In this document: positions 1 to 56,259 of the stretch, piece after piece
How positions within the stretch are numbered: position 1 is the stretch's first letter
Layout of the letters: each line of letters begins with the position of its first letter
Assembly: GCA_041674765.1 (NCBI GenBank)
Contig: JBAYVE010000006.1
Coordinates: 1-56,259 of the forward strand
Length of the DNA stretch: 56,259 nucleotides
Reading direction: 5' to 3'
Source: Patescibacteria group bacterium
GTDB taxonomy: Bacteria; Patescibacteriota; UBA1384; XYA2-FULL-43-10; 1-14-0-10-43-13
Made by a program: the position numbers and the translations under genes
Notes under the pieces: model-generated
The model's database searches: none
The model's input: the letters and a program-made list of their open reading frames with translations, nothing else
What the model was told of the DNA's origin: nothing

Positions 1-339
1 AAACCAGAAAATTTCATCCATCGTTAATACCCCATCACTAATTAGCCTTTGCCAGATTGGCCAAAAGTCGTTGGATGATATCCGGCTGTCTTCGATCTCG
101 ATCATATTAATACGGCGCTTCCGTTCGCGTGACAGGCTTATCATTGCCCGATAGAGTTTGTGATACTCTTCTACGTTCTCAGCCCAATCTAAGCCCAGTG
201 CTTGCGCACTAGCTCCAATCATTTGTTCAAGGTGCTTTTCATTTGTTGCTGCGGTCATGTCAATTTTAGCAACGTTCTTACAGGTCGAAACCATTGCAAT
301 CAGGCCATTGTGGTCTTTGTCTCTGTGTATGGTTATCAT
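1..339 (-). CDS. Hypothetical protein, truncated at window start
   Basis: Manual translation: ATG at 339-337 overlaps the upstream TAA; frame stays open for 113 codons (MITIHRDKDHNGLIAMV...DEIFWF) to position 1. Confidence 0.55.
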   Translation of the reverse strand, partial: MITIHRDKDHNGLIAMVSTCKNVAKIDMTAATNEKHLEQMIGASAQALGLDWAENVEEYHKLYRAMISLSRERKRRINMIEIEDSRISSNDFWPIWQRLISDGVLTMDEIFWF

Positions 340-530
340 TATAATAACTCCATCAGCTTTAGTTTGATATGCGTTAGATCGCAATGATGTTTTGCGTCAA
401 TCTCTTTGATGCTGTCATCAATCGATTCGATAAATGATTCTATCGCCTTGTTTATCCCTTGCTCTTTAATGAGCATTTCACCTAAGGCAACGTGTTTATT
501 AAAAAGCGGATCTATGTTAAATGTGTTCAT
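339..530 (-). CDS. Hypothetical protein, 63 aa
   Basis: Tightly packed in the leftward operon, coupled to neighbours. Confidence 0.6.
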   Translation of the reverse strand: MNTFNIDPLFNKHVALGEMLIKEQGINKAIESFIESIDDSIKEIDAKHHCDLTHIKLKLMELL

Positions 531-532
531 TT

Positions 533-1084
533 TTATTTATCCTCAATGATTGCAGCATACTTACCTGGATACCAGCTAACTACTCCGGCATCCTTGAGCG
601 ATGCGTTAAAAGTTTCTAGCGCTGACAGTACAGAGTCAGGAAGTTCAGTATCTTCTGGCAAATCATCTGCCCAGTAATCTGCATCTAATTCTCTAAGGTG
701 CTCAGGTTCGCAGATAATAAGACGTAATGAATCTATATTCTCTATTTGATGTTCATCAATATAGTCATTAAGCTGGTCATAATCAGCAAAATAAACATCG
801 TCTCTATCTGAGTGCAAATATGACTCGCCATCCCAAACTTTTCTTTCTAACTTTGAGTATCTTTCAATATCTTTTTTCTCTATGCAATCTACGCAGTAAC
901 GATAACTTCTCCTTATAATGGCTTCTTTGCAATCTTCGCATCTTTTATGCGTCGCGCTTGCATACCTTGCCATCTCTTCTAACTGACCCCAAAAAACGCC
1001 GTTTTTATCAACCCATCCGCTTAGACCAGTTACAAATTTTGCCGCCTCATCAGATTCAGCAAGTATTATTTTTTCTTCAGTCAT
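533..1084 (-). CDS. Conserved-type phage hypothetical protein (CxxC...CxxC, acidic C-terminus)
   Basis: Start MTEEK at 1084 overlaps the upstream stop; a variant 3' half recurs at 56014-56259. Confidence 0.75.
   Translation of the reverse strand: MTEEKIILAESDEAAKFVTGLSGWVDKNGVFWGQLEEMARYASATHKRCEDCKEAIIRRSYRYCVDCIEKKDIERYSKLERKVWDGESYLHSDRDDVYFADYDQLNDYIDEHQIENIDSLRLIICEPEHLRELDADYWADDLPEDTELPDSVLSALETFNASLKDAGVVSWYPGKYAAIIEDK
543..772. repeat. 230-bp direct repeat, copy 1 (copy 2 at 56030-56259)
   Basis: Manual alignment: 7 mismatches, all within 548-669; 670-772 identical to 56157-56259. Confidence 0.95.
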
Positions 1085-1704: not shown

Positions 1705-2184
1705 TTATCCTTGTTGAGATTTGATTTTCTTCTGATCTTCAAGCTGCTTTTTGATCCGATAAACATACTTGTCATGAGCGCCGACGATCTCTGATACCTC
1801 TTTGATTCCGAGTCCGTCATTAAGCAATTTTGTTATCTTCTCAATCTTGCTGTCTTTGTAGATTCGTATCCTGCGCTCGCGTGGGATTCCTGATTCCTTG
1901 ATTATTTCTTGCGCTATTCCTTTCACGTATTGCACGGACACCATCGTTCCATTTTCTCTGTACGCCAATTTATTCACTTTCATCCGTGCATGCATTTGTG
2001 CGTATGACATAGTTTTGAGATCCAGCGTTTTTATAAACGCTTTCATTTTTTCTACGTGATTATTCGATAACTTTATTCTGTTTACTTCTACTTCATTGCC
2101 GATGGAGTTTATTTTTGACGGCTTTTTATTGAGTAAAGCCGCTGGTATTAAGTCTTTAACTGTTCCGGTTAAAAGTTCAATCAT
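1705..2184 (-). CDS. Putative DNA-binding protein with C-terminal HTH
   Basis: Basic protein; LLNDGLGIKEVSEIVGAHDKYVYRIKK resembles an HTH. Confidence 0.6.
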   Translation of the reverse strand: MIELLTGTVKDLIPAALLNKKPSKINSIGNEVEVNRIKLSNNHVEKMKAFIKTLDLKTMSYAQMHARMKVNKLAYRENGTMVSVQYVKGIAQEIIKESGIPRERRIRIYKDSKIEKITKLLNDGLGIKEVSEIVGAHDKYVYRIKKQLEDQKKIKSQQG

Positions 2185-6057: not shown

Positions 6058-6450
6058 TTAGTTAGCGGCGTGTACTGGATAGCATCCCAGGTGAACCACT
6101 TTTACCGCATTAACAGCCCCCCCGAGAGTGTTCTCGTCCCAAAGTTTGATTGATCCGGCTCCTTGCAGTGCTTCAGCTAAATTTCCGCTCAATGTATTTA
6201 CTCCGATGGCTTTGTACGCCTTGCTTGATCCATACATTTCGATGGGGGTTTGTGCTATCGATTTTTTTAAATTTGTGCAGGAATCCAGATCTGGTTTTCT
6301 TACATCGTAGGTAATCTCTATAGGAGTCCTACCTGTTATTTCAATTCGAACATGACCAACTAGGTCGTGGGATGATGCGTTTGCTGCCTGAGCAGCAACG
6401 GCTAGAAAAGTGATAACAAAAAATGCTAGTAAATAATTGATGCTTTTCAT
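6058..6450 (-). CDS. Secreted/periplasmic protein with two Cys, first gene after PL
   Basis: Signal peptide MKSINYLLAFFVITFLAVAAQA; AGGAG RBS. Confidence 0.7.
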   Translation of the reverse strand: MKSINYLLAFFVITFLAVAAQAANASSHDLVGHVRIEITGRTPIEITYDVRKPDLDSCTNLKKSIAQTPIEMYGSSKAYKAIGVNTLSGNLAEALQGAGSIKLWDENTLGGAVNAVKVVHLGCYPVHAAN

Positions 6451-6524
6451 GTGAATCTCCTATAAATTTTTGAATATCAACCAAACAAAACACGGTATAG
6501 TGAGTTATTGCTGTTGATGTGCTA

Positions 6525-6553
6525 ATCATAAACGCAATGTTTGCAAAAAGCAA
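6525..6553 (-). promoter_or_regulatory. PL-like sigma70 promoter
   Basis: Minus strand TTGCTT-17 nt-TATGAT. Confidence 0.7.
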
Positions 6554-6564
6554 ACTATTTGTTT
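6530..6564. promoter_or_regulatory. OL-like operator pair, AAAC-N5-GTTT x2
   Basis: Palindromes at 6530-6542 and 6552-6564, 22 bp apart, overlapping PL. Confidence 0.75.
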
Positions 6565-6693
6565 AATTTTTGAGTAATTATTTTCATAATGAGTTCAAAT
6601 GGTTTATTTTTGGCTCAAGAGCCTCCCAAACTCTGTTGTTAAATCAGGTTTATCCATGAAAAACATTTTAATCTTGCCGATTCATAATAAAAT

Positions 6694-6728
6694 AAACATA
6701 TAGTTTGCAATTCATAAACGATTGGTTT
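6694..6728. promoter_or_regulatory. OR-like operator pair, AAAC-N5-GTTT x2
   Basis: Palindromes at 6694-6706 and 6716-6728, 22 bp apart, overlapping PR. Confidence 0.75.
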
Positions 6729-6733
6729 ATCAT
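6705..6733 (+). promoter_or_regulatory. PR-like sigma70 promoter
   Basis: TTGCAA-17 nt-TATCAT. Confidence 0.72.
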
Positions 6734-6739
6734 ATAGGG

Positions 6740-6919
6740 ATGAAACAAAAAAACTTAACTCAAAAAAGAAAAGACTTTAGACTTATTGAATCCCTCGGAG
6801 GAAGTCTTGGGCTATCAAAAAGGCTAGGTTATTCAGTGCAAAGAATAAATAACTGGAAGAAGAGGGGAATCCCGGCGTGCGAGAAGTTAAAGCATCGTGA
6901 TGTGCTTCTAATAGATTAA
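6740..6919 (+). CDS. Cro-like HTH regulator
   Basis: LIESLGGSLGLSKRLGYSVQRINNWKKRGIP is a Cro/YdaS-type HTH; first gene after PR. Confidence 0.8.
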   Translation: MKQKNLTQKRKDFRLIESLGGSLGLSKRLGYSVQRINNWKKRGIPACEKLKHRDVLLID

Positions 6920-7017
6920 CAAAATCATGATAATTCTCCCTACCATCATGACACCGCACCATCCTGTGCAGCCCCTACTGCATAGTCGGAAGGATGGACT
7001 AATTCGATTTACCCCTT

Positions 7018-7060
7018 GCCAGATACGCCTTTCTTTCCTTTTGGTGTGTCTGGCTTTTTT
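7018..7060 (+). terminator. tR1-like intrinsic terminator
   Basis: GCCAGATACGCC...GGTGTGTCTGGC stem followed by TTTTTT. Confidence 0.75.
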
Positions 7061-7076
7061 ATTGGGTCAATAAATA

Positions 7077-7625
7077 ATGCGTAAGCAGATATCAAAAAAG
7101 ATGCGTTTTGAAATATTCCACAGGGATGGCTTTACTTGCCAATACTGCGGAGCAACGCCACCAAAGGTGGTTCTGCACGTTGATCACGTATTCCCGGTTA
7201 AAAGCGGCGGAACAAATGATCAAAATAATCTTATTACCTCGTGTGAAGCGTGCAATTTAGGAAAATCATCCAAGCATTTATCTGATATTCCCTTGAGTAT
7301 AAAAGATCGCGCAAAAAGAATATTGGAAATTGAGGATCAATTAAAAGGTTACAACGAGATATTACTAGCAAGGGCGGATCGAATAGAGCAACAAGCATGG
7401 ATGGTTGTTGCGGAGCTTGAAGGGGTTGAGTTTGCTGAGAGATACAACAGAGAAAGATTGCTAAGTATTAAAAGATTCCTTGAGTTGTTGCCTGTTTCAG
7501 AGGTTATAGAAGCAGCAGAAATAACCCTATCAAAATGGGGATCCACAACGAAAGAAAGAGCTTTTAAATATTTCTGTGCTGTTTGCTGGAACAAGATTAG
7601 AGGATCCAATAATGGCCAGAATTAG
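7077..7625 (+). CDS. HNH endonuclease
   Basis: RDGFTCQYCG, LHVDHVFP...GGTN...NLITSCEACNLGK. Confidence 0.9.
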   Translation: MRKQISKKMRFEIFHRDGFTCQYCGATPPKVVLHVDHVFPVKSGGTNDQNNLITSCEACNLGKSSKHLSDIPLSIKDRAKRILEIEDQLKGYNEILLARADRIEQQAWMVVAELEGVEFAERYNRERLLSIKRFLELLPVSEVIEAAEITLSKWGSTTKERAFKYFCAVCWNKIRGSNNGQN

Positions 7626-17105: not shown

Positions 17106-17312
17106 ATGAAAAGACCAGCGATCAATCCCACGATTGAGCAGATAAAAGCATCGCGAGCAATAGCCGGGCTGACACAAAAGCAAGCTGCCGAGCTTGTGAT
17201 GTGTACGGCCAGAGCTTGGGAGCAGTGGGAGTGCGGCAATCGACGCATGCACCCAGGACTGTACGATTATTTTCTGACTAAAACTGGTCAAAAAGTACTT
17301 GATTCCGTTTAA
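17106..17312 (+). CDS. XRE-family HTH regulator, 68 aa
   Basis: IKASRAIAGLTQKQAAELV...RAWEQWECGNRRM. Confidence 0.85.
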   Translation: MKRPAINPTIEQIKASRAIAGLTQKQAAELVMCTARAWEQWECGNRRMHPGLYDYFLTKTGQKVLDSV

Positions 17313-22333: not shown

Positions 22334-22660
22334 TTGGCAAAGATAGCAAAGTCGACAGCTAACCAAGCATCAATACAAGCCGCAGTTGGACCAGTTGTCC
22401 TTAATGGAGTAGTAGGATACACGGCGAAAATTTCGTCTCAATACATTCTTTTCTTCGATTTAGCGGCTGCGCCAGATGATGGAGCCGTTCCTGAGTTCAT
22501 GCTGTTAGTCCAAGCATCAAGCACATTTACCATAGATTTCGGATTCCATGGATATGAGTTTAAAAATGGATTGTACATATGCAATTCATCTACACAGCAA
22601 ACCAAAACCATTGGATCCGCAGACTGTTGGTTTAACGCTCAGATGAGGAGCAGCATCTAA
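22334..22660 (+). CDS. Small beta-rich putative virion protein
   Basis: AGGAG 8 nt before TTG 22334; YILFFD...PDDGAVP...GLYICNSST. Confidence 0.65.
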
Positions 22661-24468
22661 TGGCAAGTTTTTCAAATGGAGGAACTTCTGGGGGTGGCGC
22701 TCCCGGAGCTGATGGTGCTGACGGAGATTTTATATATCATGGTTACGCATCTGACTCGGCAGGTACTGATTTCTCGCTGTCTCCAGCAGTCAACCTCAAG
22801 TACATATCAATACTCAGATCGGAAGTTGAAATAGCGGTCCCAGATTTGGCAGACTTTGTTTCAGGATGGTATAAATATTTGGGTGATGATGGTGCCGCAG
22901 GTGCAGAAGGCTCTCCTGGAGCGACCGGGCCAGCTGGTCCAACAGGGGCAACCGGTCCACAAGGTCCTCAGGGCATTGATGGTACAGAAGGTCCGCAAGG
23001 TCCTCAGGGGATCCAAGGTGTGACAGGGGCAACAGGTTCAACAGGTGCTCAAGGATTAACCGGTCCAACCGGCGCTACAGGACCGACCGGACCAACAGGG
23101 GCGACCGGCGCTCAGGGTCCTACCGGTCCAACCGGCGCAACCGGGGCAACCGGTGCTGATGGCGTAACAATTCACTCTCTAATAGAAAAGCATTTCTACA
23201 AATTTGATACAGGTATATTAGACAATCGTCCCGGCGCCGGTAAAAGTAAGATCAATAACTCTACTGTAATAAGCGCAAGTCTAATCTTTATCGATGACAT
23301 TGATAATAATGGATTGAATCAGGAAGGCTGGATACAGTCAATCCGAGCAGGCGACAAGTTGGTCTACCGTGATATCACGGACACAACCACGTACATTACG
23401 GTGACATTTACTGATGTAGCGACAACGCGCGTTGATTACTGGGGCGTGCCTATAACAGCAACGGGCACAAAGCCGGCAGACGAAGAACCGTGCCTCGTGT
23501 ACTTTATCAGCAAGGGCGCAGAGAAAGTCCTAAGACTGTCAGGTGATTTTGCTTTCTGGAATGGCACGGATTTGGTTGATAGTAACGATGTTGTTATATC
23601 CAATCCGTTGACATATGCAACTTGCGAGGACAAGGGAACTCCGGCAACGTTTAGCGGCAAAACAGCGATAGTTGTTAACCCAGGGGATAATGCAGATGGG
23701 TTGCCTAACTCAATTTATTGCAATGGGTCGAAATGGCAATATATGGGAGAGGGCAAGATTGCTCAAGGTTGCCCAATGCTCAAGGTTACCGCTCCTGCTG
23801 CGACATTCATTGGTACTTATACACTTGCTAATTCAAGTGGGAATACGAGCGTAACAGGTGCTGGTGCTCATGGGTTAACGACCGCTGTATCGGTGTCCAC
23901 CACTAACCCAGTATATGTAAGAGTTTTGAGTGGTACAAATTGGGTTCCGGGTTTGTATAAACTCATATCGATCACAGATGCGGGCAGTCAACTAACTATT
24001 GACCATCCTTACTCTGCATCACTTGGTCAGCCAACATTCGCGCTAGTCGGGGCGTCAGTAGAGATAATCAGGCTAAAAATACCGTCTCTTTCTGTGACTG
24101 GCGGCGCTAAATTGGTTGCTACGTTTGATCATACTGCGGTAGCGACTGCAAGCAGAACTGTCGAGGTGCGGCATACAACAAATGGAGGCGCCGTAGATAG
24201 CGGAACAGCGCTCCTGTCACTAGCAGAGACGACGAATGCACCGATTTCCAAAGGTGAGTGGGGTTTCCGCAACCGAGCAGCAACTAACGTTAATCGTAAA
24301 TTGCATAGCTCAGGTGATGTGGATGGATGGGGATCGGTAAACTCCGGTTCATCTGGCGAGGGAGCAATAGAGACAAACGTAGTTACGAATATCGTTATGT
24401 CGGCAATTTTCGCTGCTGCAAACGATTCTGTTAATTTAGAAACATACGCTTTGTATAACACGCTATGA
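22660..24468 (+). CDS. Collagen-repeat fibre/spike protein
   Basis: About 30 consecutive Gly-X-Y triplets (~22890-23163); beta-rich C-terminus. Confidence 0.8.
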
Positions 24469-32187: not shown

Positions 32188-32862
32188 GTGAATTATATTG
32201 AGTTGGCTCAGCGTGCAGTTATGGAGGCCGGGGCATCCGGCAGAAATAGCACGGTGGTCAATGCGAGTGGAGAATGGCTGCGTTTCGTAACGTGGGTAAA
32301 TCAGGCATGGCTTGATATTCAGAATGAGCATGCTGATTGGCTTTGGATGAGGAAAACTAAGTCATTCCAGACAATAGCTAATCAAGCGGAATATCCGGTA
32401 ACTGCTGCGCCAATATCGCTTACTGACTTCGCAAGCTGGGTTAATGACTCGTTCAGGATTTACAGGACTTCAATACAAAGCGAGTTATTTTTAAACCAGG
32501 TTGAATATGGAATGTTCCGTGATATGTGGCTGTATGGTTCTCTCAGAACATCATATGGTCAACCTACAAATATAACGGTTTCCCCTAGTAAGTCATTGAT
32601 ACTGGCATTGCCGCCTGATAGTACAGATTACACGGTAACCGGAGACTATCAATCAACTCCTTCTAATTTGGTTGCAGATACCGACATTCCAGATATGCCG
32701 GAGCGTTTTCATATGTGCATAGTGTGGAAAGCTTTGGTTCATTATGGCGGGAAAGAATCTTATCCTGATGCTTATACGCGAGGCAAAGAAGAGCTTAATA
32801 GGCTGATGACAAGACTTGCTATCGATCAACGTCCATCAATAACTATTAATAGAAGATTCTGA
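32188..32862 (+). CDS. Head-to-tail adaptor (tail tubular A / gp4-like)
   Basis: WVNQAWLDIQ...W.W, DIPDMPERFH..IVWKAL. Confidence 0.75.
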   Translation: MNYIELAQRAVMEAGASGRNSTVVNASGEWLRFVTWVNQAWLDIQNEHADWLWMRKTKSFQTIANQAEYPVTAAPISLTDFASWVNDSFRIYRTSIQSELFLNQVEYGMFRDMWLYGSLRTSYGQPTNITVSPSKSLILALPPDSTDYTVTGDYQSTPSNLVADTDIPDMPERFHMCIVWKALVHYGGKESYPDAYTRGKEELNRLMTRLAIDQRPSITINRRF

Positions 32863-39607: not shown

Positions 39608-40276
39608 ATGGTTGGTTTTCTTGGAATGATGGCGGCTGGCGCTGCGGTAGGTGCTAGGAATGCATCGAATATGGATGTTCAAGCACAGAACCAGATGGAG
39701 ATGGAAAGAATCCGCAGTAATATTGATATTGACCGTGAAGCGCTCAGGCAGAAGTATCTTGATAAGAAATTTGCGCAGCAATCGGAAATAGGTGCGCAAC
39801 AATTCAAGGCAAAGGCTTTATTGGACGAGTCAAGGTACCAAAGAGAAAGGCAAGATAAGCTGTCTGACAGTGAGGCAAATAGAAAACATCAGCTTGAACT
39901 AGAGGGTATCAAGGAATCTGGTCGAAATTCAAGATTTAATCAAAGACAATCTTTGCTAAAAGAGAAGGGGTCTTCTGGTCCGCAAAGTGCGTCTGGCGAT
40001 GTGAAAGCCTCTTCACCTATTGGCAAAGCTACGCAGGATCTTGTTCGGCTTGGGTTGGCTCCAGACAACCAGACCGCTTACGAGATGGCCATGAAGCTTG
40101 ATATCGTAAAAGCGGCGCAGCAAAACCCAATGAATAAATTCTCTGATGACGAGTTGTTGAATAGCGTGAACAGACTGACGAGAGGGTTATATCCATCAGG
40201 TAGTTCTCAGCAAACGCAGCAACCAACCAATGATTTAATTCGGTCATTTAATCCAAAAACAGGACGATTCGAGTAA
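39608..40276 (+). CDS. Putative ejection protein
   Basis: GMMAAGAAVG N-terminus plus coiled coil. Confidence 0.6.
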   Translation: MVGFLGMMAAGAAVGARNASNMDVQAQNQMEMERIRSNIDIDREALRQKYLDKKFAQQSEIGAQQFKAKALLDESRYQRERQDKLSDSEANRKHQLELEGIKESGRNSRFNQRQSLLKEKGSSGPQSASGDVKASSPIGKATQDLVRLGLAPDNQTAYEMAMKLDIVKAAQQNPMNKFSDDELLNSVNRLTRGLYPSGSSQQTQQPTNDLIRSFNPKTGRFE

Positions 40277-43200
40277 TGGTGCAACAAGTTCGCGCGTATG
40301 GGCAAGTTCTGCAATTCCCGGATGATATGTCTGATGATGATATGGCGAAAGCAATTCAGAATAATGAGCATGTTCTGAATCCAAACTTCAAAGCGCCAGA
40401 AGGTCTTAGCGGCATTGCTAAAAATGTTGTGAGTGGCACTAAGCAAACCGGGCGCATGGTTGGGGCGGGGTTTGACACGATAAGGAATGAATTGGCCGGG
40501 GTTGAGGACTACGCGAAAGCATCTGATATCGCGCGTCAGCAAGAAACTCCAATTGAGCAAAGAAAACTGTTGGGTGAATTGTCTTCGATCGATCGGGATC
40601 AAGGTGCCCTAAGACAAATCGGAGATACGCTATCGGCTGCCGGTCGCAATCCGATGGGAACCGCTCAAATGATAACCGAGCAATTGCCAAACACGGCGGT
40701 ATCTCTCGGTGGTGGTTATGCTGGATTTAAAACAGGCGCAGCCGCAGGCGCTTTGTTCGGTCCTGTTGGCGCAACCATCGGCGGCACGCTTGGATTCCTA
40801 GGTGGCATGTTTCTTGGTAATGTGTTGCTAGAGACTGGTGGGAAAGCAATTGAAAAAGCATCTGACGAAGATGGATATACGCCAGAGGATCGTGATAACG
40901 CGCTGCGCGAAGGTGCTGTTAAAGGGGCTGTAATTACCGGTGTAGATGCTGCGACCTTAAAGCTTGGCAGTATGGTGACGAATAGGCTTGGAGCTGCTGC
41001 CACGAATGCGGGTGCCAAAGCGGAGGCGAAGGTGTTGATTGAAGCAGGGGTGGATATGTCTAGCACATCCGCAATCAATGCCGCTCTCAAGAGTTCTCCT
41101 GAGTTGTTGAAATCGGCAAAAGTGGCTGGTGAGAAAGCCGCAATACAAGCTTTGTCTAAATCAAAAAAGGCTGGGATCATCGGTACCGGCTTGGTCCTCG
41201 AAACTGCAGGCGAAGGTATTGGAGAGTATGCTGGAGAAATGGCTGCCACTGGCAAGGGTGATGTTGTTGATGCCACTATTGAAGCGCTATCGAGCGCAAC
41301 ACAAAGTATTGCTGAGACTGCATACAATTTCAATAAACTGAAATCAGGAAACGATCTGTCTGCTGACGGGATGCGTAAAGTAGCTGATAGTGTTAATGAA
41401 ATTACTCTCAAGGATGGGATAAATAATATAAGCAAGTCTCAGTCTGTCGATGAGGCAATTCAATCCGCAGTGGAAACGGTTTCCGCAAAGCCAGTTACGG
41501 CGAATGATGTATTAAAAACAGTTGACCCTACATTGCTAGATGTTGAAAGGTTGACGGGATTAAAACCAAGCGAAGTAATAAATGACGCAAATCTACAAGG
41601 AGAGCAAGATGTCAAAAACGAAGCCAGCCAAGAAGCCAAGCAGAAGGCCGGTCAAAAGCCCGTCTTACTAGGTAACGACACAGAAATAGTATTGCCAGAT
41701 GGGCAATCCATCCCCGCCAAATGGGGTGTTGTCGATGCAAATCAGGTTAGTGCATCGATAAAAGAGGGCATTAATCAGCCAAGGGACCGCACAAGAGCGG
41801 CTTCCGACATTCAGATTCAAGGAATCGCCAACAATCCTGATTATCGGCGTTTGTCTGACTCGGTGTTGATGGATACCGGGTCACCAACGTTAAGTTATGA
41901 CGGCTTGATTGTGGGTGGTAATGGTCGTTTTGAGGGAATCAGTCGGGCACACGAAACAGGCGCTTCTGAAAAGTATAGGGAAAGTTTACTAAATGATGCG
42001 CTAAGTAAAGGAATTGACGTTTCCCTTATACAAGGCATAAAGAGCCCGGTACTCGTGCGGCAGATCACGCAGCCATTCGACACTAGAAAGCTGGCTGTTG
42101 CGTCCAATTCCGGAACAAACATGCAGTATTCAGGCTTAGAATTAGCCAAGATTGATGCAGGTCGCATGTTCGGCATAGAGGATCTTGATATCGCTGATAA
42201 TGGCGATATCGCAATGACTGGGCTAAATTTTCAGAGAATTAAGCAATCTCTTGCTGATTATAATCAATCAGAGATTGCGGCAATTGTCGATAAGAACGGC
42301 GCATTATCTCAAGATGGCGTTAAGAGAATACGCAATGCAATACTAGCCAAGGCATACGGAAATTCAGAAACACTCGGGCGCATGGTTGAATCAACCGATA
42401 ATGACATGCGTAATGTGCTTGGCGCGCTAACTCGCACATCCGGAACGGTGGCTAGAGTACGATCTGAAATAAAATCAGGTGCAATACCGGAAGAATTGGA
42501 TATCACAGACAACCTTTTGAATGCCGTTGAAACACTGGCGCAAATTCGGTCAAAAGGTCAGCCGCTTGATCATTATCTTTCTCAGGAAAATATGTTTGGT
42601 GATAACATAGATTCTGACAGCAAAGAGATATTGCAATATCTTCACGATAATATTCGTAGCCAAAAGAAAATGGCTGAATTTATCAATAATGTGTACGGTC
42701 AGATCGGTAGCATTGACCAATCTACTGAGGATATTTTTGGCGATAATGTTGTGCCAACCAAAAAGGAAGTTATTGATAATGCAAAACCAACCGAACAAGA
42801 CGAACAGCAAGGAATCTTCAGCCAGCAAAAACCTGGTGGAACAAATGAACAAGAATCAAAAACTGAAGCAGATAATTCTGCAAGCGGCAAGGAAAAATTC
42901 AGAACGTCTGACGAACTCAGAAATAGAGCAATTACAGCAAGAGACACAAGAAGCCAACGTATCGCTGCAAAAAGCATTCAAAAATCTGAAGATAATCAAG
43001 TCAGCTTAAAACCTTCTCGCTCTCCAGAAGAAAGGCTAAAAGATCGTGAAAGAGCCAAGCAACTCGAAAGAAAGCTCAACGCCCAAGGATTCAACTACAC
43101 AGTCACAGCCAAGGATGTGCGGGACTTTTCTGCTGGAGATCGGGGCAAAGAAAATGAAGCGGATGCAGCGGAAAAGATTGCCAAAATCTTTGGCAGAAGA

Positions 43201-46200
43201 ATAGTATGGATTGAAGCCCGGGGTGATCATGCTATCAATGGCGTGGTTATCACAAGTATCAAAGATACGATATTCATTGACGTTAATACAGATAAAGCCG
43301 CTCATGCCATCATGGGGCATGAATTATCACATCACTTAGAGCACGACAAGCCGGAAGTATACAAAGAACTAACTCGATCTCTTATGACGGTTATAAGAGA
43401 TCATCCAGGTTATGCAAATAAATATGGAATAGAAGGCGCCCGCCAGTCTGATATTACCAAAGAAATTGTTGGCGATATCATGGGCGATAACTTCACAAAA
43501 CCGGAATTCTGGAATCGTGTTGCCGAAGCCAATCCTAGTACATACAAAAATATTGCGGATACAATTATCTCTTGGCTGAAACGTCTGATCATAAATGCAA
43601 AAGCACGTAGCCTTGGATCCGAGCAATGGGTAACTGACGCTCAGAAAGCACAGGATATTGTTGCTAAGGCGATTGCTCAGTACACCAGTCAATCCAATGC
43701 TCCGGCTTCAGGTAAAGCCAAATTCCATTCAGCATTTCACGGTTCACCGCACGACCACGATAAATTCGATTCATCCAAGATCGGCACAGGGGAAGGTGCG
43801 CAGGCATACGGTCATGGGTTGTATTTCGCTGAAAGCAAGGATGTGGCTGAGTCTTATAAAAAAGTTTTAACAGATGGGAAAATGGCTATAAACGGAATTC
43901 CGTTTGAGCCTAAAAACTACACAATCACAAAAATGGTTGCTAATCATAAAGGAAGCGATGATTCGTTAATTAGTAGGCTAGAGACTTATATTAAATGGAA
44001 TTCATCAAATCCATACGCAATGACAGAAGATGCGCAAATTGTTATTGATGCACTGAAAGACGGAACATTAACTAAGAAAGTTGGCGGCAAACTCTACCAA
44101 GTAGAACTAGCGCCAAAACAAGATGAATATCTGTTGTGGGATAAGCCATTATTAGAGCAGAGTGATAAAGTTATTGCGTCTCTTGAAAAGAAATTCTCGC
44201 TACCATCATTTGATAAAGACTTCGGTACGGCAGGTGAGTTTTATAGGTCAAGAGCGAGAAAGTTTGATAGCCAGGAGAAGGCTAGTTCCGAACTCTATAG
44301 TTTAGGCATTCGCGGTATTAAGTACCTGGACGGATCGAGCAGGCACAAAAAATATGTTGTGATTCTCTCCACTAAGAAGGGTGAATTCTCAAGAGGTGAA
44401 TTTGACAACAAGAGCCAAGCTGAAGAATACGCGAAGGATAAGCTCGAAGAAGGATTTGTGGCTGAAGTAAAATTCAATGAAGACGGAAACTTTAATTATG
44501 TAATTTTTGATGAAAATGACGTAACTATCACGGCCAAGTTCAGCAAGAAAGCGACTGATGAGCAGAACAAGCAAACGTTTGCACAGAAGGTCGCTGCATA
44601 TCAAGTTCTGGATGCCAAGTTCGATGATGATAATTTCATCAAGAATCTTGATATTGATTCATGGGGAGCATTGCGCAATTCATTGCAAGCTATCCGTGAA
44701 GACATAGCAAATGCTCTTGAAAATAACATCATTGATGCTATTGATGCGAACGGCAAAAGGCTATTGTCGCGCAATTCAACTGATAGTGGTAACGACTGGA
44801 GAATCACGTCATTTGATGCGGATGGTGATCCTCTCGGTCATTCTGAATACAGGAATGCAAAACGTGCTGTTGATGATCTTTTCGTATCAGGTATAAACCA
44901 AAATTGGAAAGCATTAAGCAAGGATGATCCTGATGCCGTGAAATTCTCTCGCGCTTCTCAAGGCAGTCTATTTGGTAACAATGATAATCTGGCCAGCCAA
45001 GAAGAGGTGTTAAAAGCAAATTCTGCGCGTCCAGGTGATTTATTCTCAAGCAGCAATAAGGGCGGCGTGCAACAAAACACGGCCATATCCGATGATATGT
45101 TTGCTAATACTGGTTCAGTAGAGAAAGATCCTGTGTTGCCGGAAGGTTTTAGTTTCACCGAAGGAAAGGGATTGATAGCAGGTAGATTTGCTGTATCCGA
45201 TAGTAATGGTGATACAGTAAGCAACTTCCATACTGACAAGCAGAAAGCGGCGCAGGAATTCGAGAGCAATCAATACCTTAAGAAGCAGTTTGAAGAAAAA
45301 TCCAAACGTAATGATGAAATATTTGAGAAAATTTCCAATAAATTGTTGGCCGGCGGTAAGGCTAGTGATGAAGATTTGAAAGGTTTGGATTTAAAACAGG
45401 TATCGAGATTTGATTATATTTCCCCGGTGATCCAAAAATTATTTGGGATAAGTAAATCAAAAGTAAGGGATGCAATGGGAGCGGCTTTATTCAAAAGTCA
45501 AGGCATTTATGGAGGGGAAACTTTTGAAGCAAATTCAAAATCTGCCTTAGAGAATGCTGCGAAATTTGTAAATTCTCAGAATGTCGGCCTAGATATTCCT
45601 AGAGATCAAGCTGCCGCCAAAATAGAAGATTTTGGGGAAAAGATTGGCGGCGCACGCAAAGACTTAGAGCGTTCTATTTCCAGAGAATACACCGACGACG
45701 ACATTGCTACTCAACCACTGAGCAAGATATGGCCGAAGGATGATTACCTTAATATTGAAAATCCTTTCTTATCGGCATTTTATTATTCAGCTCGTGAACA
45801 GATACCTACCAAGCCAAAGTTAAGCTACCGGGTAAAATCTTGGGTTCAAAAGGTCAAGATGTTTCGTGGCCTAGCAAAACTGGCTGTGTCTGGCTCCTTA
45901 AATGAAGACAAGATTATCGAATTCAGTAAAAAATTTCCAGGACTCGAGAATTTCTTTGCTCGTGCGCAAGTTTTGTCCAGGGTGCCGAACCGTCAGGACT
46001 GGTCAAGGGTGGAGAGCGTAGCCATTTATCCAGATGCCGGAAAATACGATAGCAATGGGATATTAATCAATTACCCAATGGCTCAAATTAAGATCGATGG
46101 CAGAACGACTGTTGTTAATGTAACGGACGTCGATCGGGTTGCCGAGAGCGTAAATGACCTTCTGCAGAAAGAAAAGCCAAATGATGACAAGAAAATGCAG

Positions 46201-49200
46201 TTTGAGTTGCGTGGTAGAACTGGCTCATATTTCATCAACAAGAAAGGCGATCGTGAATATCGTAAGCTCAAAACTTTCACTGATCTGAAGGAAGCTAGTC
46301 AATATCTCAAAAACAATTACGATGATCTTGTTGCTGCATGGGAGCTTGTAAAGGAAAGCGATAACGTCAAAAAAACCGATGTTAGGGGCGAAGAGAATCG
46401 ACCACGTACCGGGCAGGATTGGAGGCAAGGGAAGGATGTAACGCCGGACCAATTTCAATCTGCGTTCGGATTCCGTGGAGTCGAATTCGGTAATTGGGTA
46501 TCTCAAGGCAAAGATAATCGTGAGCGACAAGGAATGCTTAATCAGGCTTATGATGCATTGATGGACCTATCCAACATTGTTGGTGTGCCACCAAAAGCGC
46601 TATCTCTTAATGGATCGTTGGGGCTTGGATTCGGTTCGCGCGGCAAGGGAGCAGCGCTGGCTCACTTCGAGCCGGGTGCGCTTGTGATAAATCTCACTAA
46701 GACGAAAGGCGCAGGCAACCTAGCTCATGAATGGTTTCACGCTATGGATAATTATTTCCAGCGGAAGCGTGGAGAACCAAAGCCTGTACGTGAGGATATG
46801 TTCATTACATATCGGCCAGAACCGATGATGATGCACAAGAAAAGCGGCTCATTGATGACTCAATATCAGATTGAAAAAAGACGGTTGAGCAATCCTACTG
46901 CCGGATATTTTAGTCCCGAGAATTGGGTTAAAGATCCCAATCATCCTATGGGTGTGCGTCCTGAAGTAGAAGCCAGATTCTCTGATCTAGTGATAGCTCT
47001 TGATGAGTCCCCAATGAAGAAACGGGCGGGAGCGATCGACAAGGGTAAGGAAGATGGCTACTGGTCCAGAATCATTGAGCGTGCCGCGAGATCATTCGAG
47101 AATTATGTTATCGCCAAGATGATGAAGAAAGGCTATAACAATGACTATCTAGCCAATGTTACCAATGCAGAGGACTTCGCTCGAGACAAAGAGCGCTATC
47201 CTTACTTGCTTGAGAGCGAGGTTGCTCCAGTTGAGGAAGCATTCGATAATCTGTTCAGCGAGATTAAGACCAAAGAGACTGACAAAGGCATAGCAATGTT
47301 CAGTCGCGCCTCAATCCCCGACACAATCAACATCGACGGCGTTGACCGTCCAACCACGAACAGCGAAGGTAAGCCGATACATCCTACTGAGGAAGGTATT
47401 CGGAATTTTTGGCGGTGGTTTGGTGATAGCAAAGCCGTGGATGCTGGCGGTCGGCCAATTGTTTACAAACATTCAACGAAAGAGAGATTCTCTGAGTTTA
47501 AATCATCATACGGCGGAATATATTTAACAACCGGTAATTCTATTGCTGCAGATATATTTAATAATGACGGAGCAGGATTTACGCACGATATTTATATCAA
47601 GACAGAAAAGCCATTTATTGCTGTATGGAAAAAAATGCCTGGCGAGGAAAAGCAAGTATTGAAAGATATTATGAATTCAATATTTGATGAAAATGATATT
47701 CAAGATCTACGTGAAATTGATTCTGCAAATAGTGGAAGAGAATCAGAAATAGACCACTTTGAGTTATTTACTGATGGAGAATTTTATTTAACTCTAGGAA
47801 GGAATGCCCAGGATAAAGTTTTGGATATGATTAAAACGTATGGGTATGACTCGGTTGAATTCAGTGATTCTTTGGCATGGGGAGAAAACAATACATCAAC
47901 AGTTGTTTTTGATCCTGCGCGCCTCAAAATTTCTATGGGCGATGATGGTCCTAAGTTTAGTTTTGCCGGGAAGAAATCTGAAACGGCTGATTCAATGTCA
48001 CTTACTGCTGCGCAAGATCGTATTGCCAATGGCGACGATCAAGAACAAGTTAGGCAAGATACCGGATGGTTTCTGGGCGTCGATCGTAAGTGGCGTTATG
48101 AAATAAATGATAGTGATGCCTCAATCAAAAAACCGTTTCCTACTAAAAATCAGCCGTGGGGCGAGGTATACAAATCGGTGTACGCGCAACGCCTGAAAGA
48201 TGGATTTGCCGGAATAGCATTAGAGGATGTTATTGATCATCCTAAGTTGTTCGCAGCATATCCAAATTTAGCTAATCTCAGTATTGATACGGAAGTAGGT
48301 TCAGGAGCTTCTTTCAGAGTAAGTACAGGACTATCCCCGTCTATGATAACAATAGGAGAGGATGTGCCAATGAGCGATGTTTTGTCAGTATTGCTGCATG
48401 AGATCCAACATGGAATTCAAAGAACAGAAGGATTTGCTACTGGTGGTAGTGTGCAATCTTCTGCTCAATTTATCAGAGATAATGAGATAAAAAGAAATGA
48501 ATATCATGAAAGTTCCGCATATAAAAAATGGGCAGCCGAGCAGAATAAATTAATCGATAGTATTGATGATGAAGCTGATCTTCAAAAAGCACTTGAAGAT
48601 CACAGTAAAAAAAGACCGCCAAGCAATCATGTCTATCTTGATTTTTTTGATAGACCTGAATCAGTTTACAGGAGATTAGGTGGCGAAGTGGAGGCCAGAA
48701 ACGTTCAGGCTCGCATGGGCATGTCTGACGATCAGAGAAAGAGACAATCTCCAGAAGAAACACAAGATATCAAAAACGATGATGTCATATTAATGTTCAA
48801 TGGCAAGGTAATGAATAATGCACCGCCACCACAGAACGCACAAAAATCAATCCTGAATGAAGATAATGGTATTGGCAATGCCGACATAAAGACAACGGAA
48901 GGTGTGTCTCCTGAACGCACAAATAGCTTGGATATCCCTAGAGAATCACGCTTCAGAAAATTCCAACGTAAATATCAAGATTCATTCAATCGATTCACGG
49001 TAGTTAAAGAGTGGCTTGCGGATAAGGGTATAAACGTATCACAGCAAGCTGACGTGTACGCAGCAGAAGAACGATATCACGCAAAAGTAGCTAATCAAGT
49101 CGAGGACTTCCGCGAGCAGATCCGCAATCCTTTGATTGAGAAAATCGCTAAAGCAGGCTTTACGATGGATGATATTGCTGATTATCTGGAAGCGCAGCAT

Positions 49201-56013: not shown

Positions 56014-56259
56014 TTACTCCATTTGATTATCAATAATTGCAGCATACTTACCTTGATGCCAGCCAACTACTCCGGCATCCTTGAGCGATGCGTTAAAAGT
56101 TTCTAGCGCGGACAGTACAGAGTCAGGAAGTTCAGCATCTTCTGGCAAATCATCTTCCCAGTAATCTGCATCTAATTCTCTAAGGTGCTCAGGTTCGCAG
56201 ATAATAAGACGTAATGAATCTATATTCTCTATTTGATGTTCATCAATATAGTCATTAAG
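56014..56259 (-). CDS. 3' part of a variant allele of the 533-1084 gene, truncated at window end
   Basis: LNDYIDEHQ...GVVGWHQGKYAAIIDNQME-stop. Confidence 0.8.
   Translation of the reverse strand, partial: LNDYIDEHQIENIDSLRLIICEPEHLRELDADYWEDDLPEDAELPDSVLSALETFNASLKDAGVVGWHQGKYAAIIDNQME
56030..56259. repeat. 230-bp direct repeat, copy 2
   Basis: Matches 543-772. Confidence 0.95.

Follow-up and report, generated by a model that had tools for sequence, protein, structure and literature searches.

A lambdoid-type early control region with Cro and two operator pairs, and with no recognisable repressor gene, in a probably lytic phage genome

The 56,259-bp stretch of DNA analysed here (contig JBAYVE010000006.1, positions 1 to 56,259; hereafter the window) contains a phage early control region from which a leftward operon of recombination genes and a rightward operon of replication genes diverge. 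Two pairs of one short palindrome, each overlapping a predicted promoter, lie in this region, and the first rightward gene is a cro-like gene, whereas the interval in which lambdoid phages carry their maintenance repressor holds only 129 bp. A preliminary description of the same DNA had interpreted this arrangement as a lambdoid switch with intact operators from which the cI repressor gene had been deleted, giving a lytic phage. The predicted features of the switch are as follows, from left to right.

6525 to 6553, minus strand: leftward early promoter PL, with TTGCTT (6553 to 6548), a 17-bp spacer and TATGAT (6530 to 6525); found by eye
6530 to 6542: operator OL1, proximal to PL, core AAACGCAATGTTT, exact motif match; the 17-bp form ATAAAC-N5-GTTTGC covers 6528-6544
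6552 to 6564: operator OL2, distal, core AAACTATTTGTTT, exact motif match; its flank gives the TTGC of the PL -35 element
6565 to 6693, no strand: spacer without a repressor gene, 129 bp, with three micro-open reading frames (micro-ORFs) and a 12-bp palindrome
6694 to 6706: operator OR2, distal, core AAACATATAGTTT, exact motif match; its flank GTTTGCAA gives the PR -35 element
6705 to 6733, plus strand: rightward early promoter PR, with TTGCAA (6705-6710), a 17-bp spacer and TATCAT (6728-6733); found by promoter scan
6716 to 6728: operator OR1, proximal, core AAACGATTGGTTT, exact motif match
6740 to 6919, plus strand: cro, encoding a 59-aa Cro-family helix-turn-helix (HTH) protein, the predicted ligand of the four sites

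The palindrome AAACNNNNNGTTT (AAAC-N5-GTTT) has four exact matches in the window, starting at 6530, 6552, 6694 and 6716, against about 1.2 expected, and the chance of finding four sites within 200 bp is roughly 1e-9 or less by a Poisson estimate. Elsewhere in the window there are 32 one-mismatch matches against 30.9 expected; because this is the chance level, the exact sites are confined to the switch region. The exact-match scan agrees with the geometry given in the preliminary description, with a spacing of 22 bp inside each pair and 129 bp (6565-6693) between the pairs. When the flanking bases are included, each site is a 17-bp element that reads RYAAAC-N5-GTTTRY, and both pairs are mirror images of AAAC-N5-GTTTGC-N7-AAAC-N5-GTTTAT. 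In both modules, the distal site contributes the TTGC of the -35 element and the proximal site fills the promoter spacer and reaches the -10 element: OL1 sits in the PL spacer and overlaps its -10 element, and OR1, whose outer half-sites are symmetric (ATAAAC ... GTTTAT, 6714-6730), lies within the spacer of PR, directly next to its -10 element. Since the sites are embedded in the -35 and -10 elements, a protein on either of them should block RNA polymerase. A third operator, as in the tripartite arrangement of lambdoid switches, was found on neither side, either as an exact match or as a credible one-mismatch site nearby. The operators are therefore not intact in the sense first proposed: there are two sites per side, and the third site of temperate relatives is missing. 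Taken together, the clustering, the geometry and the co-occurrence with a protein family described below indicate that the four palindromes are the operator sites of a lambdoid-type switch, as predicted.

Divergent early promoters that are each overlapped by several copies of one palindrome are a defining trait of the lambdoid switch, and the overlap with sigma70 promoters described earlier was recovered here by scan for PR and by eye for PL, which is the mirror image of PR and has a predicted start at ~6518. The same promoter/operator module is present in three viral contigs from other sources (L012, L013 and L014). The predicted PR start (~6740) is the A of the cro ATG, which lies 7 nt past the -10 element, and no Shine-Dalgarno sequence was found at a usable distance before this ATG. 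Because the predicted start coincides with the A of the ATG, the cro mRNA is probably leaderless. In L029, a relative from Methylotenera, PR and cro have the same geometry, with the ATG a few bases after the -10 element. RNA libraries offer a hint in the same region, and no more than a hint, as the evidence consists of assembled contigs and some of the libraries clearly hold phage DNA: in three runs that belong to a single study, contig depth falls almost to zero over 6523-6735, the first base of one contig is 6740, and contigs on the leftward side stop at 6520 and 6500, which hints weakly at transcription starts.

As in lambdoid switches, cro is the first gene downstream of PR. Its product matches PHROG 8008 (DNA-binding protein) with E = 3.5e-14 and the YdaS-type HTH family of Pfam (PF15943) with 24.6 bits, under the cut-off of 30. 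A profile built from the product and nine relatives matched, in the PDB, the Cro protein of the Xylella prophage Xfaso 1 (3bd1, E = 3e-4), XPH1 (7e-3) and P22 Cro (1rzs, 0.18). These sequence comparisons place the product of 6740-6919 firmly in the Cro family, among its all-alpha members like those of P22 and Xfaso 1. We infer that it binds the four sites as a dimer, which is supported by the co-occurrence of the protein family and the site pair in 16 viral contigs, and it would thereby repress both promoters. A six-frame phmmer search with four family members as queries found no second HTH of the Cro/repressor family in the window beyond cro itself.

The absence of a repressor can be assessed across a whole genome. 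An open reading frame (ORF) of ~193 aa spans the junction between the end and the start of the window (56017-56259 joined to 1-396, minus strand), and because this ORF runs across the junction, the window represents a closed, complete genome. Scans against Pfam and PHROG, which covered the large majority of coding-strand ORFs of at least 90 aa together with the small ORFs of the early region, detected no integrase, S24 peptidase, cII, partition, protelomerase/telomere-resolving or transposase gene in this closed genome. This agrees with the earlier statement that the window lacks a cI-sized HTH/S24 gene, cII and int. In lambdoid phages the maintenance repressor is located between OL and OR; here the spacer holds no ORF of at least 20 aa with HTH similarity, and no S24/cI-type protein was found anywhere in the genome. 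In addition, an HNH endonuclease gene occupies the slot in which a prophage relative in Nitrosomonas has cII.

The phage could nevertheless be temperate still, if a repressor encoded elsewhere acts on these sites, or keeps the genome silent by another route, while the prophage persists with no classical integrase. Such a repressor might be the other clear HTH protein of the window (17106-17312, 68 aa, XRE-type, HTH_31), the weak C-terminal HTH of the ORF at 1705-2184 (minus strand) or any of the many ORFs without annotation. The 68-aa protein has weak PHROG similarity to transcriptional repressors, but its gene lies directly upstream of the lysis genes, it shows no similarity to the Cro/repressor family of these sites, and the six-frame search covered it without returning a match. 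Maintenance of a prophage is likewise hard to reconcile with a closed genome in which integrase, partition, protelomerase and transposase genes are all undetected. Moreover, no near-identical prophage copy was found in 185,579 species genomes, in which the best match of a neighbouring protein reached 79%, and assembled contigs of 55.6 and 56.3 kb are not flanked by bacterial sequence. We therefore consider a temperate lifestyle improbable.

The spacer contains three micro-ORFs (plus strand, 6656-6703, 15 aa; minus strand, 6657 to 6604, 17 aa; minus strand, 6587 to 6555, 10 aa, extending into OL2) and, in its middle, a perfect 12-bp palindrome, GGCTCAAGAGCC (6612-6623), which is invariant in all relatives. 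One minus-strand micro-ORF, MDKPDLTTEFGRLLSQK*, begins 37 bp from OR2 and 7 nt past a TAAAAT, and in L012 and L013 the repressor starts at a similar distance from the operator; as the remnant of a repressor N-terminus it was rejected, its sequence being unlike the repressor N-termini of the relatives. The spacer as a whole was likewise rejected as a repressor remnant, with local DNA alignments to the switch regions of 10 relatives falling within the shuffle range (the best, to L012, scored 33 against a shuffle maximum of 33), and it was rejected as a structured RNA (fold z = 0.36). The 26 bases adjoining OR2 joined to a different left side, as would be expected in a sibling with a repressor, gave 0 matches in 241 million metagenome records; the scan pattern was validated on 19 contigs of the lineage.

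Whether a repressor was lost or never present is best judged from phages that share the operator motif. A scan of IMG/VR for the bare site pair returned 113 loci, mostly chance matches, of which a hidden Markov model of Cro retained 16. In these 16 contigs the site pair abuts a Cro-family gene, and 15 of them also carry a divergent larger repressor of 113-274 aa; three further relatives with a repressor (L001, L015 and L029) came from other searches. The repressor gene of such phages is placed next to OR or in the interval from OL to OR. The two kinds of protein share a related recognition-helix signature, TNW-x-(K/R)-RGIS in the repressors and QRV-x-NW-K-x-RGIP in the Cro proteins. Because motif, Cro family and cognate repressor travel together, the sites can be assigned as operators of this HTH family, and this is the best available evidence for that assignment. 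In L015, a Cro protein 66% identical to that of the window is encoded beside a divergent 237-aa HTH+S24 repressor, with three motif-like sites between the two genes and two more sites ~1.2 kb away, past two small genes; L001 has the same layout and a Cro protein with 45% identity. An IMG/VR search with the promoter/operator module alone returned the three contigs named above. Two of these, L012 and L013, have two divergent modules 1.2-1.3 kb apart, between which lie a gene for a repressor-like HTH protein of ~133-145 aa, with a third site at the repressor start, and a secreted-protein or lipoprotein gene. Three sites at OR are found in L012, L013, L015, L057 and L115.

Overall, the temperate phages that share the motif (L012, L013, L034, L057, L115, L015, L029 and others) resemble the window in their AAAC-N5-GTTT operators, in Cro proteins up to 66% identical and, in many cases, in the 22-bp pair spacing and the promoter-embedded design, with GTTTGC as -35 and GTTTAT as -10 element. 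They differ in having the divergent repressor, with or without an S24 peptidase domain, a third operator at the repressor promoter and often one or two extra genes before OL. The third contig found with the module, L014 (UViG_3300033068_001780), has a leftward pair, ~120 bp without a gene, a rightward promoter with one clear embedded site, a Cro-family gene and a DUF1376 replication protein. This layout was derived from 11 kb of the 49-kb contig, and to that extent L014 is, by its sequence features, a second and otherwise unrelated lineage with a repressor-less layout at the switch; it differs from the window in having only one clear PR site and unrelated flanking genes. The first leftward gene of L014 (5796-6674, minus strand) encodes a 292-aa pentapeptide-repeat protein.

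Because 15 of the 16 IMG/VR contigs and also L001, L015 and L029 carry a repressor, the missing repressor is the unusual feature and represents a derived or minority state. However, the reverse order of events also has support: a Cro-only cassette may have arisen in lytic phages, with temperate phages later gaining a repressor paralogue. Such an origin would account for a spacer without a repressor remnant, for the failure to find a sibling with a repressor and for the recurrence of the layout in L014, and the common HTH type of repressor and Cro is what would be expected if one arose from the other. Against it stand the predominance of repressors among the independent site-pair lineages, the remaining early region, which is typical of temperate lambdoid phages, and the prophage relatives in Nitrosomonas and Methylotenera, which have repressor, cro and cII. 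An ancestrally repressor-less layout is thus rather unlikely, and loss of a repressor that the ancestor carried is the more parsimonious inference; the deletion would be old relative to the spread of the lineage. As for the cI-deleted lytic derivative of the preliminary description, a lambdoid-type switch without a repressor, whose relatives do carry one, is upheld, but the deletion itself could not be demonstrated: the comparison with relatives yielded no close sibling with a repressor, and the spacer retains no remnant of the gene.

The repressor-less layout is a fixed property of a widespread lineage and no sporadic mutant. All 20 contigs covering the region (6 haplotypes), which come from wastewater, sludge and landfill and were assembled from different samples at ENA, JGI and Logan, have the same four site positions and the same 129-bp spacer. 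A 98%-identical Cro is encoded on 20 contigs, and the collection of metagenomes holds the identical 130-aa protein of the first leftward gene in 47 blocks. The region is matched by contigs of four DNA runs that are independent of one another (landfill, wastewater and activated sludge); those of X1, X4 and X18 cross 6565-6693 unbroken, and no joints, branches or loose ends were found inside this interval in the four runs. The concern that the segment might be misassembled is thereby removed, and nothing was found in favour of a collapsed assembly or of a single deletion mutant of the laboratory type; both are refuted by the identical layout in different samples and are practically excluded. Another assembly, of 55.6 kb, is close to the window in size, and contig depth reaches 277x in one run, indicating that the phage is abundant in wastewater.

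Among the 20 contigs, the spacer has one variable position in 129 bp (6569), and the half-sites of OL1 are unchanged, the sole change lying in its N5 (6534 G/A). None of the 9 variable positions within the lineage falls in a half-site, but only 0.6 would be expected to do so, which makes this count uninformative on conservation. Recurrent break points of assembly graphs flank the switch at 6493, 6697 and 7067; four JGI contigs from different samples begin exactly at 6493, run X10 contains a variant, at ~40%, that diverges after 6697, inside OR2, and several runs diverge after 7067. A 35-mer of the X10 variant was not found in JGI metagenomes. With these break points, the switch looks like an exchangeable cassette.

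We interpret the region as the early control region of an obligately lytic phage that uses Cro alone and combines lambdoid early genes, namely those for Cro, the O-like replication protein, NinB, RecE/RecT and SSB, with an SU10-type podovirus virion module, a reading to which we assign a probability of about 0.7. Upon infection, host sigma-70 RNA polymerase would fire the divergent promoters PL and PR, and PR would yield a probably leaderless cro mRNA. Cro dimers would then occupy the four 17-bp operators, two per promoter. With centres 22 bp apart, or about two helical turns, the two dimers of a pair would lie on the same face of the DNA, and pairwise cooperativity would be likely; one dimer would cover the -35 element, and the other would fill the promoter spacer and touch the -10 element. 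Occupancy would shut both early operons and auto-limit Cro, and lysogeny would be no option without a maintenance repressor, cII and integrase. The module would descend from a widespread family of temperate-phage switches, in which a larger repressor with the same recognition-helix signature adjoins OR and a third operator lies at the repressor promoter. Lambda Cro likewise turns down PL and PR late in infection. The operators would be kept because Cro needs them, and no trans-acting repressor is required, so that their retention does not call for the special explanation sought in the preliminary description. A lytic lifestyle also fits the many homing-endonuclease genes, the probably injected polyvalent protein and the SU10-type adaptor described below.

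Several observations weigh against this interpretation. PL matches the consensus at 8 of 12 positions, one short of the scan threshold, and both Cro binding and the early transcription starts are predictions from sequence. The signals from RNA libraries are mixed, with two other libraries spanning the spacer, probably through contaminating DNA. About half of the small ORFs belong to no recognisable family, which leaves room for an unrecognised repressor or maintenance function. Finally, the near-invariance of the spacer hints at a function, albeit from small numbers, and control by Cro alone leaves the spacer unexplained.

The sites might instead serve mainly a regulator acting in trans, either a host factor or the repressor of a resident prophage with matching specificity, with Cro playing a minor part. 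Temperate phages with the same half-sites and repressors of this family do exist, one of them binned with Methylotenera, a genus in the suggested host clade. However, being repressible is a cost to a lytic phage and gives no reason for keeping the sites, which form part of the -35 and -10 elements at PL and PR beside a cognate cro, and no host regulator is known to use AAAC-N5-GTTT. As the main purpose of the sites, regulation in trans is therefore quite improbable, even though related prophages of the L015 or L029 type may plausibly repress the phage in trans.

The nearest precedent for such sensitivity is mycobacteriophage D29, which is lytic but descends from a temperate phage like L5 and has lost the repressor gene while keeping the repressor-binding sites (PMC5712189). 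D29 is excluded by L5 and StarStuff lysogens, so its sensitivity persists after repressor loss (PMC5712189), and a homoimmune-sensitive phage of the same kind is what regulation in trans would predict here. The window shares with D29 the kept sites without a repressor. In contrast, the D29 deletion has an end-point within the gene for the repressor, and D29 has known temperate siblings that are close to it, whereas no remnant or sibling, and hence no identifiable deletion, was found here; in addition, the sites here are predicted to serve a resident Cro, whereas the D29 stoperators have no resident ligand. Lytic phages of temperate descent that keep operator sites are thus a known kind, with D29 as the classic case, and the present one involves no new mechanism.

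Compared with the lambda immunity region (OL/PL - rex - cI - PRM/OR/PR - cro), the window has in common the divergent early promoters overlapped by repeated palindromic 17-bp operators, the position of cro at the head of the rightward operon, with a terminator-like structure and then the replication genes behind it, and the recombination genes on the leftward side. Unlike in lambda, only 129 bp separate the operator sets, without cI, rex or PRM; there are two operators per side rather than three; cII, N and int are undetected; cro is apparently leaderless; and the Cro protein belongs with the all-alpha P22/Xfaso 1 type and does not have the lambda Cro fold.

The window offers a clean natural example of a temperate-type switch minus its lysogeny half, in which Cro and the promoter-embedded operators stay and the third operator, the repressor and cII are gone. 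A prophage repressor that reads the same half-sites should exclude this phage, as a consequence and not as the purpose of the sites. More speculatively, and with low confidence, the lineage may have a spacer function of its own (as a micro-ORF, as an origin element, or as a site for looping or DNA architecture) together with a host range set by prophages, and so represent a stable, globally spread minimal switch in which the entire early programme depends on a single small, leaderless Cro and on four operators embedded in the promoters. If this were true, resident prophages would set the host range of a lytic phage by repressor cross-immunity, its operators matching those of temperate phages of the same bacterial clade, and an immunity network would join lytic and temperate phages of wastewater Nitrosomonadales.

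Clues to the host come from the DUF6475 protein of the rightward operon, whose best matches are a contig of a Nitrosomonas metagenome-assembled genome (MAG; 79%), the isolate N. supralitoralis APG5 (65%) and Methylotenera MAGs (63-67%). Classical switches occupy these loci: in N. supralitoralis, the gene for a 178-aa repressor is accompanied by cro, O and a cII-like gene, a Methylotenera MAG locus has a cI-like gene with RecE/RecT, and L029, another Methylotenera contig, carries a repressor gene and two AAACCTGTGGTTT sites. A host in Nitrosomonadales is tentatively suggested by this one protein, partly through binned contigs. If the host belongs to this order of ammonia oxidisers and methylotrophs, prophage-mediated immunity may matter for the phage control of these populations.

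Two further features flank the switch.

6058 to 6450, minus strand: first gene of the leftward operon, encoding a 130-aa protein with an N-terminal signal peptide
6925 to 7066, plus strand: structured region after cro, with hairpins at 6925-6951 and 6959-6997 and a long GC-rich stem with a T-run at ~7018-7066

The 130-aa secreted protein belongs to no Pfam or PHROG family and has no tblastn match among known phages; it is followed in the leftward operon by RecT and RecE. The region after cro folds with -46.2 kcal/mol (z = -4.5) and is conserved among relatives to ~7005, beyond which it is mosaic. Its stem and T-run look like a tR1-type terminator placed before the HNH and replication genes, and its hairpins could act in cis as an antitermination or processing signal; no Rfam family matched the region, and no N-like antiterminator was recognised. 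Rightward of this structure follow genes for the HNH endonuclease, an O-like replication protein, DUF6475, dUTPase, NinB and methyltransferases. The slot between cro and the replication gene (window 7077-7625, plus strand) holds differing homing-endonuclease genes depending on the relative (HNH, HNH_3 or none; L002-L025), a 381-bp skip from 7097 to 7479 is the majority form in several runs, and the relatives hold many further HNH and NUMOD4 genes.

The late region encodes a large terminase ~45% identical to those of Vibrio and Pseudoalteromonas podophages, an SU10-type adaptor (32188-32862, plus strand) and a 3,794-aa polyvalent protein (40276-51660, plus strand) with ddrB-like ParB, ADP-ribosyltransferase, LPD1, LPD5, LPD23 and LPD38 domains, which probably enters the cell together with the DNA and counters host defences. 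The genome is a mosaic, since this virion module looks podovirus-like and has no relation to the early region of lambdoid type. A 602-aa collagen-repeat protein is encoded at 22660-24468 (plus strand). No tRNA or Rfam RNA genes were found, and megablast queries of 4 kb and 24 kb had no match among 50,697 phage records.

Besides wastewater, close variants of the segment 6058-7076 also occur in libraries, RNA-seq among them, whose labels name mosquito metagenome or several unrelated coded organisms; contigs in these libraries extend over non-transcribed DNA, which suggests contamination by DNA from the environment or from reagents. An SSB gene lies just beyond the end/start junction of the window, and in the relative L016 an IS605 OrfB/Cas12f-like TnpB gene (1-839, minus strand), absent from the window, stands beside SSB in the leftward operon. 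The C-terminal part of the junction-spanning ORF and the adjacent 188-aa protein (533-1099) share PHROG 11053 and look like tandem paralogues.

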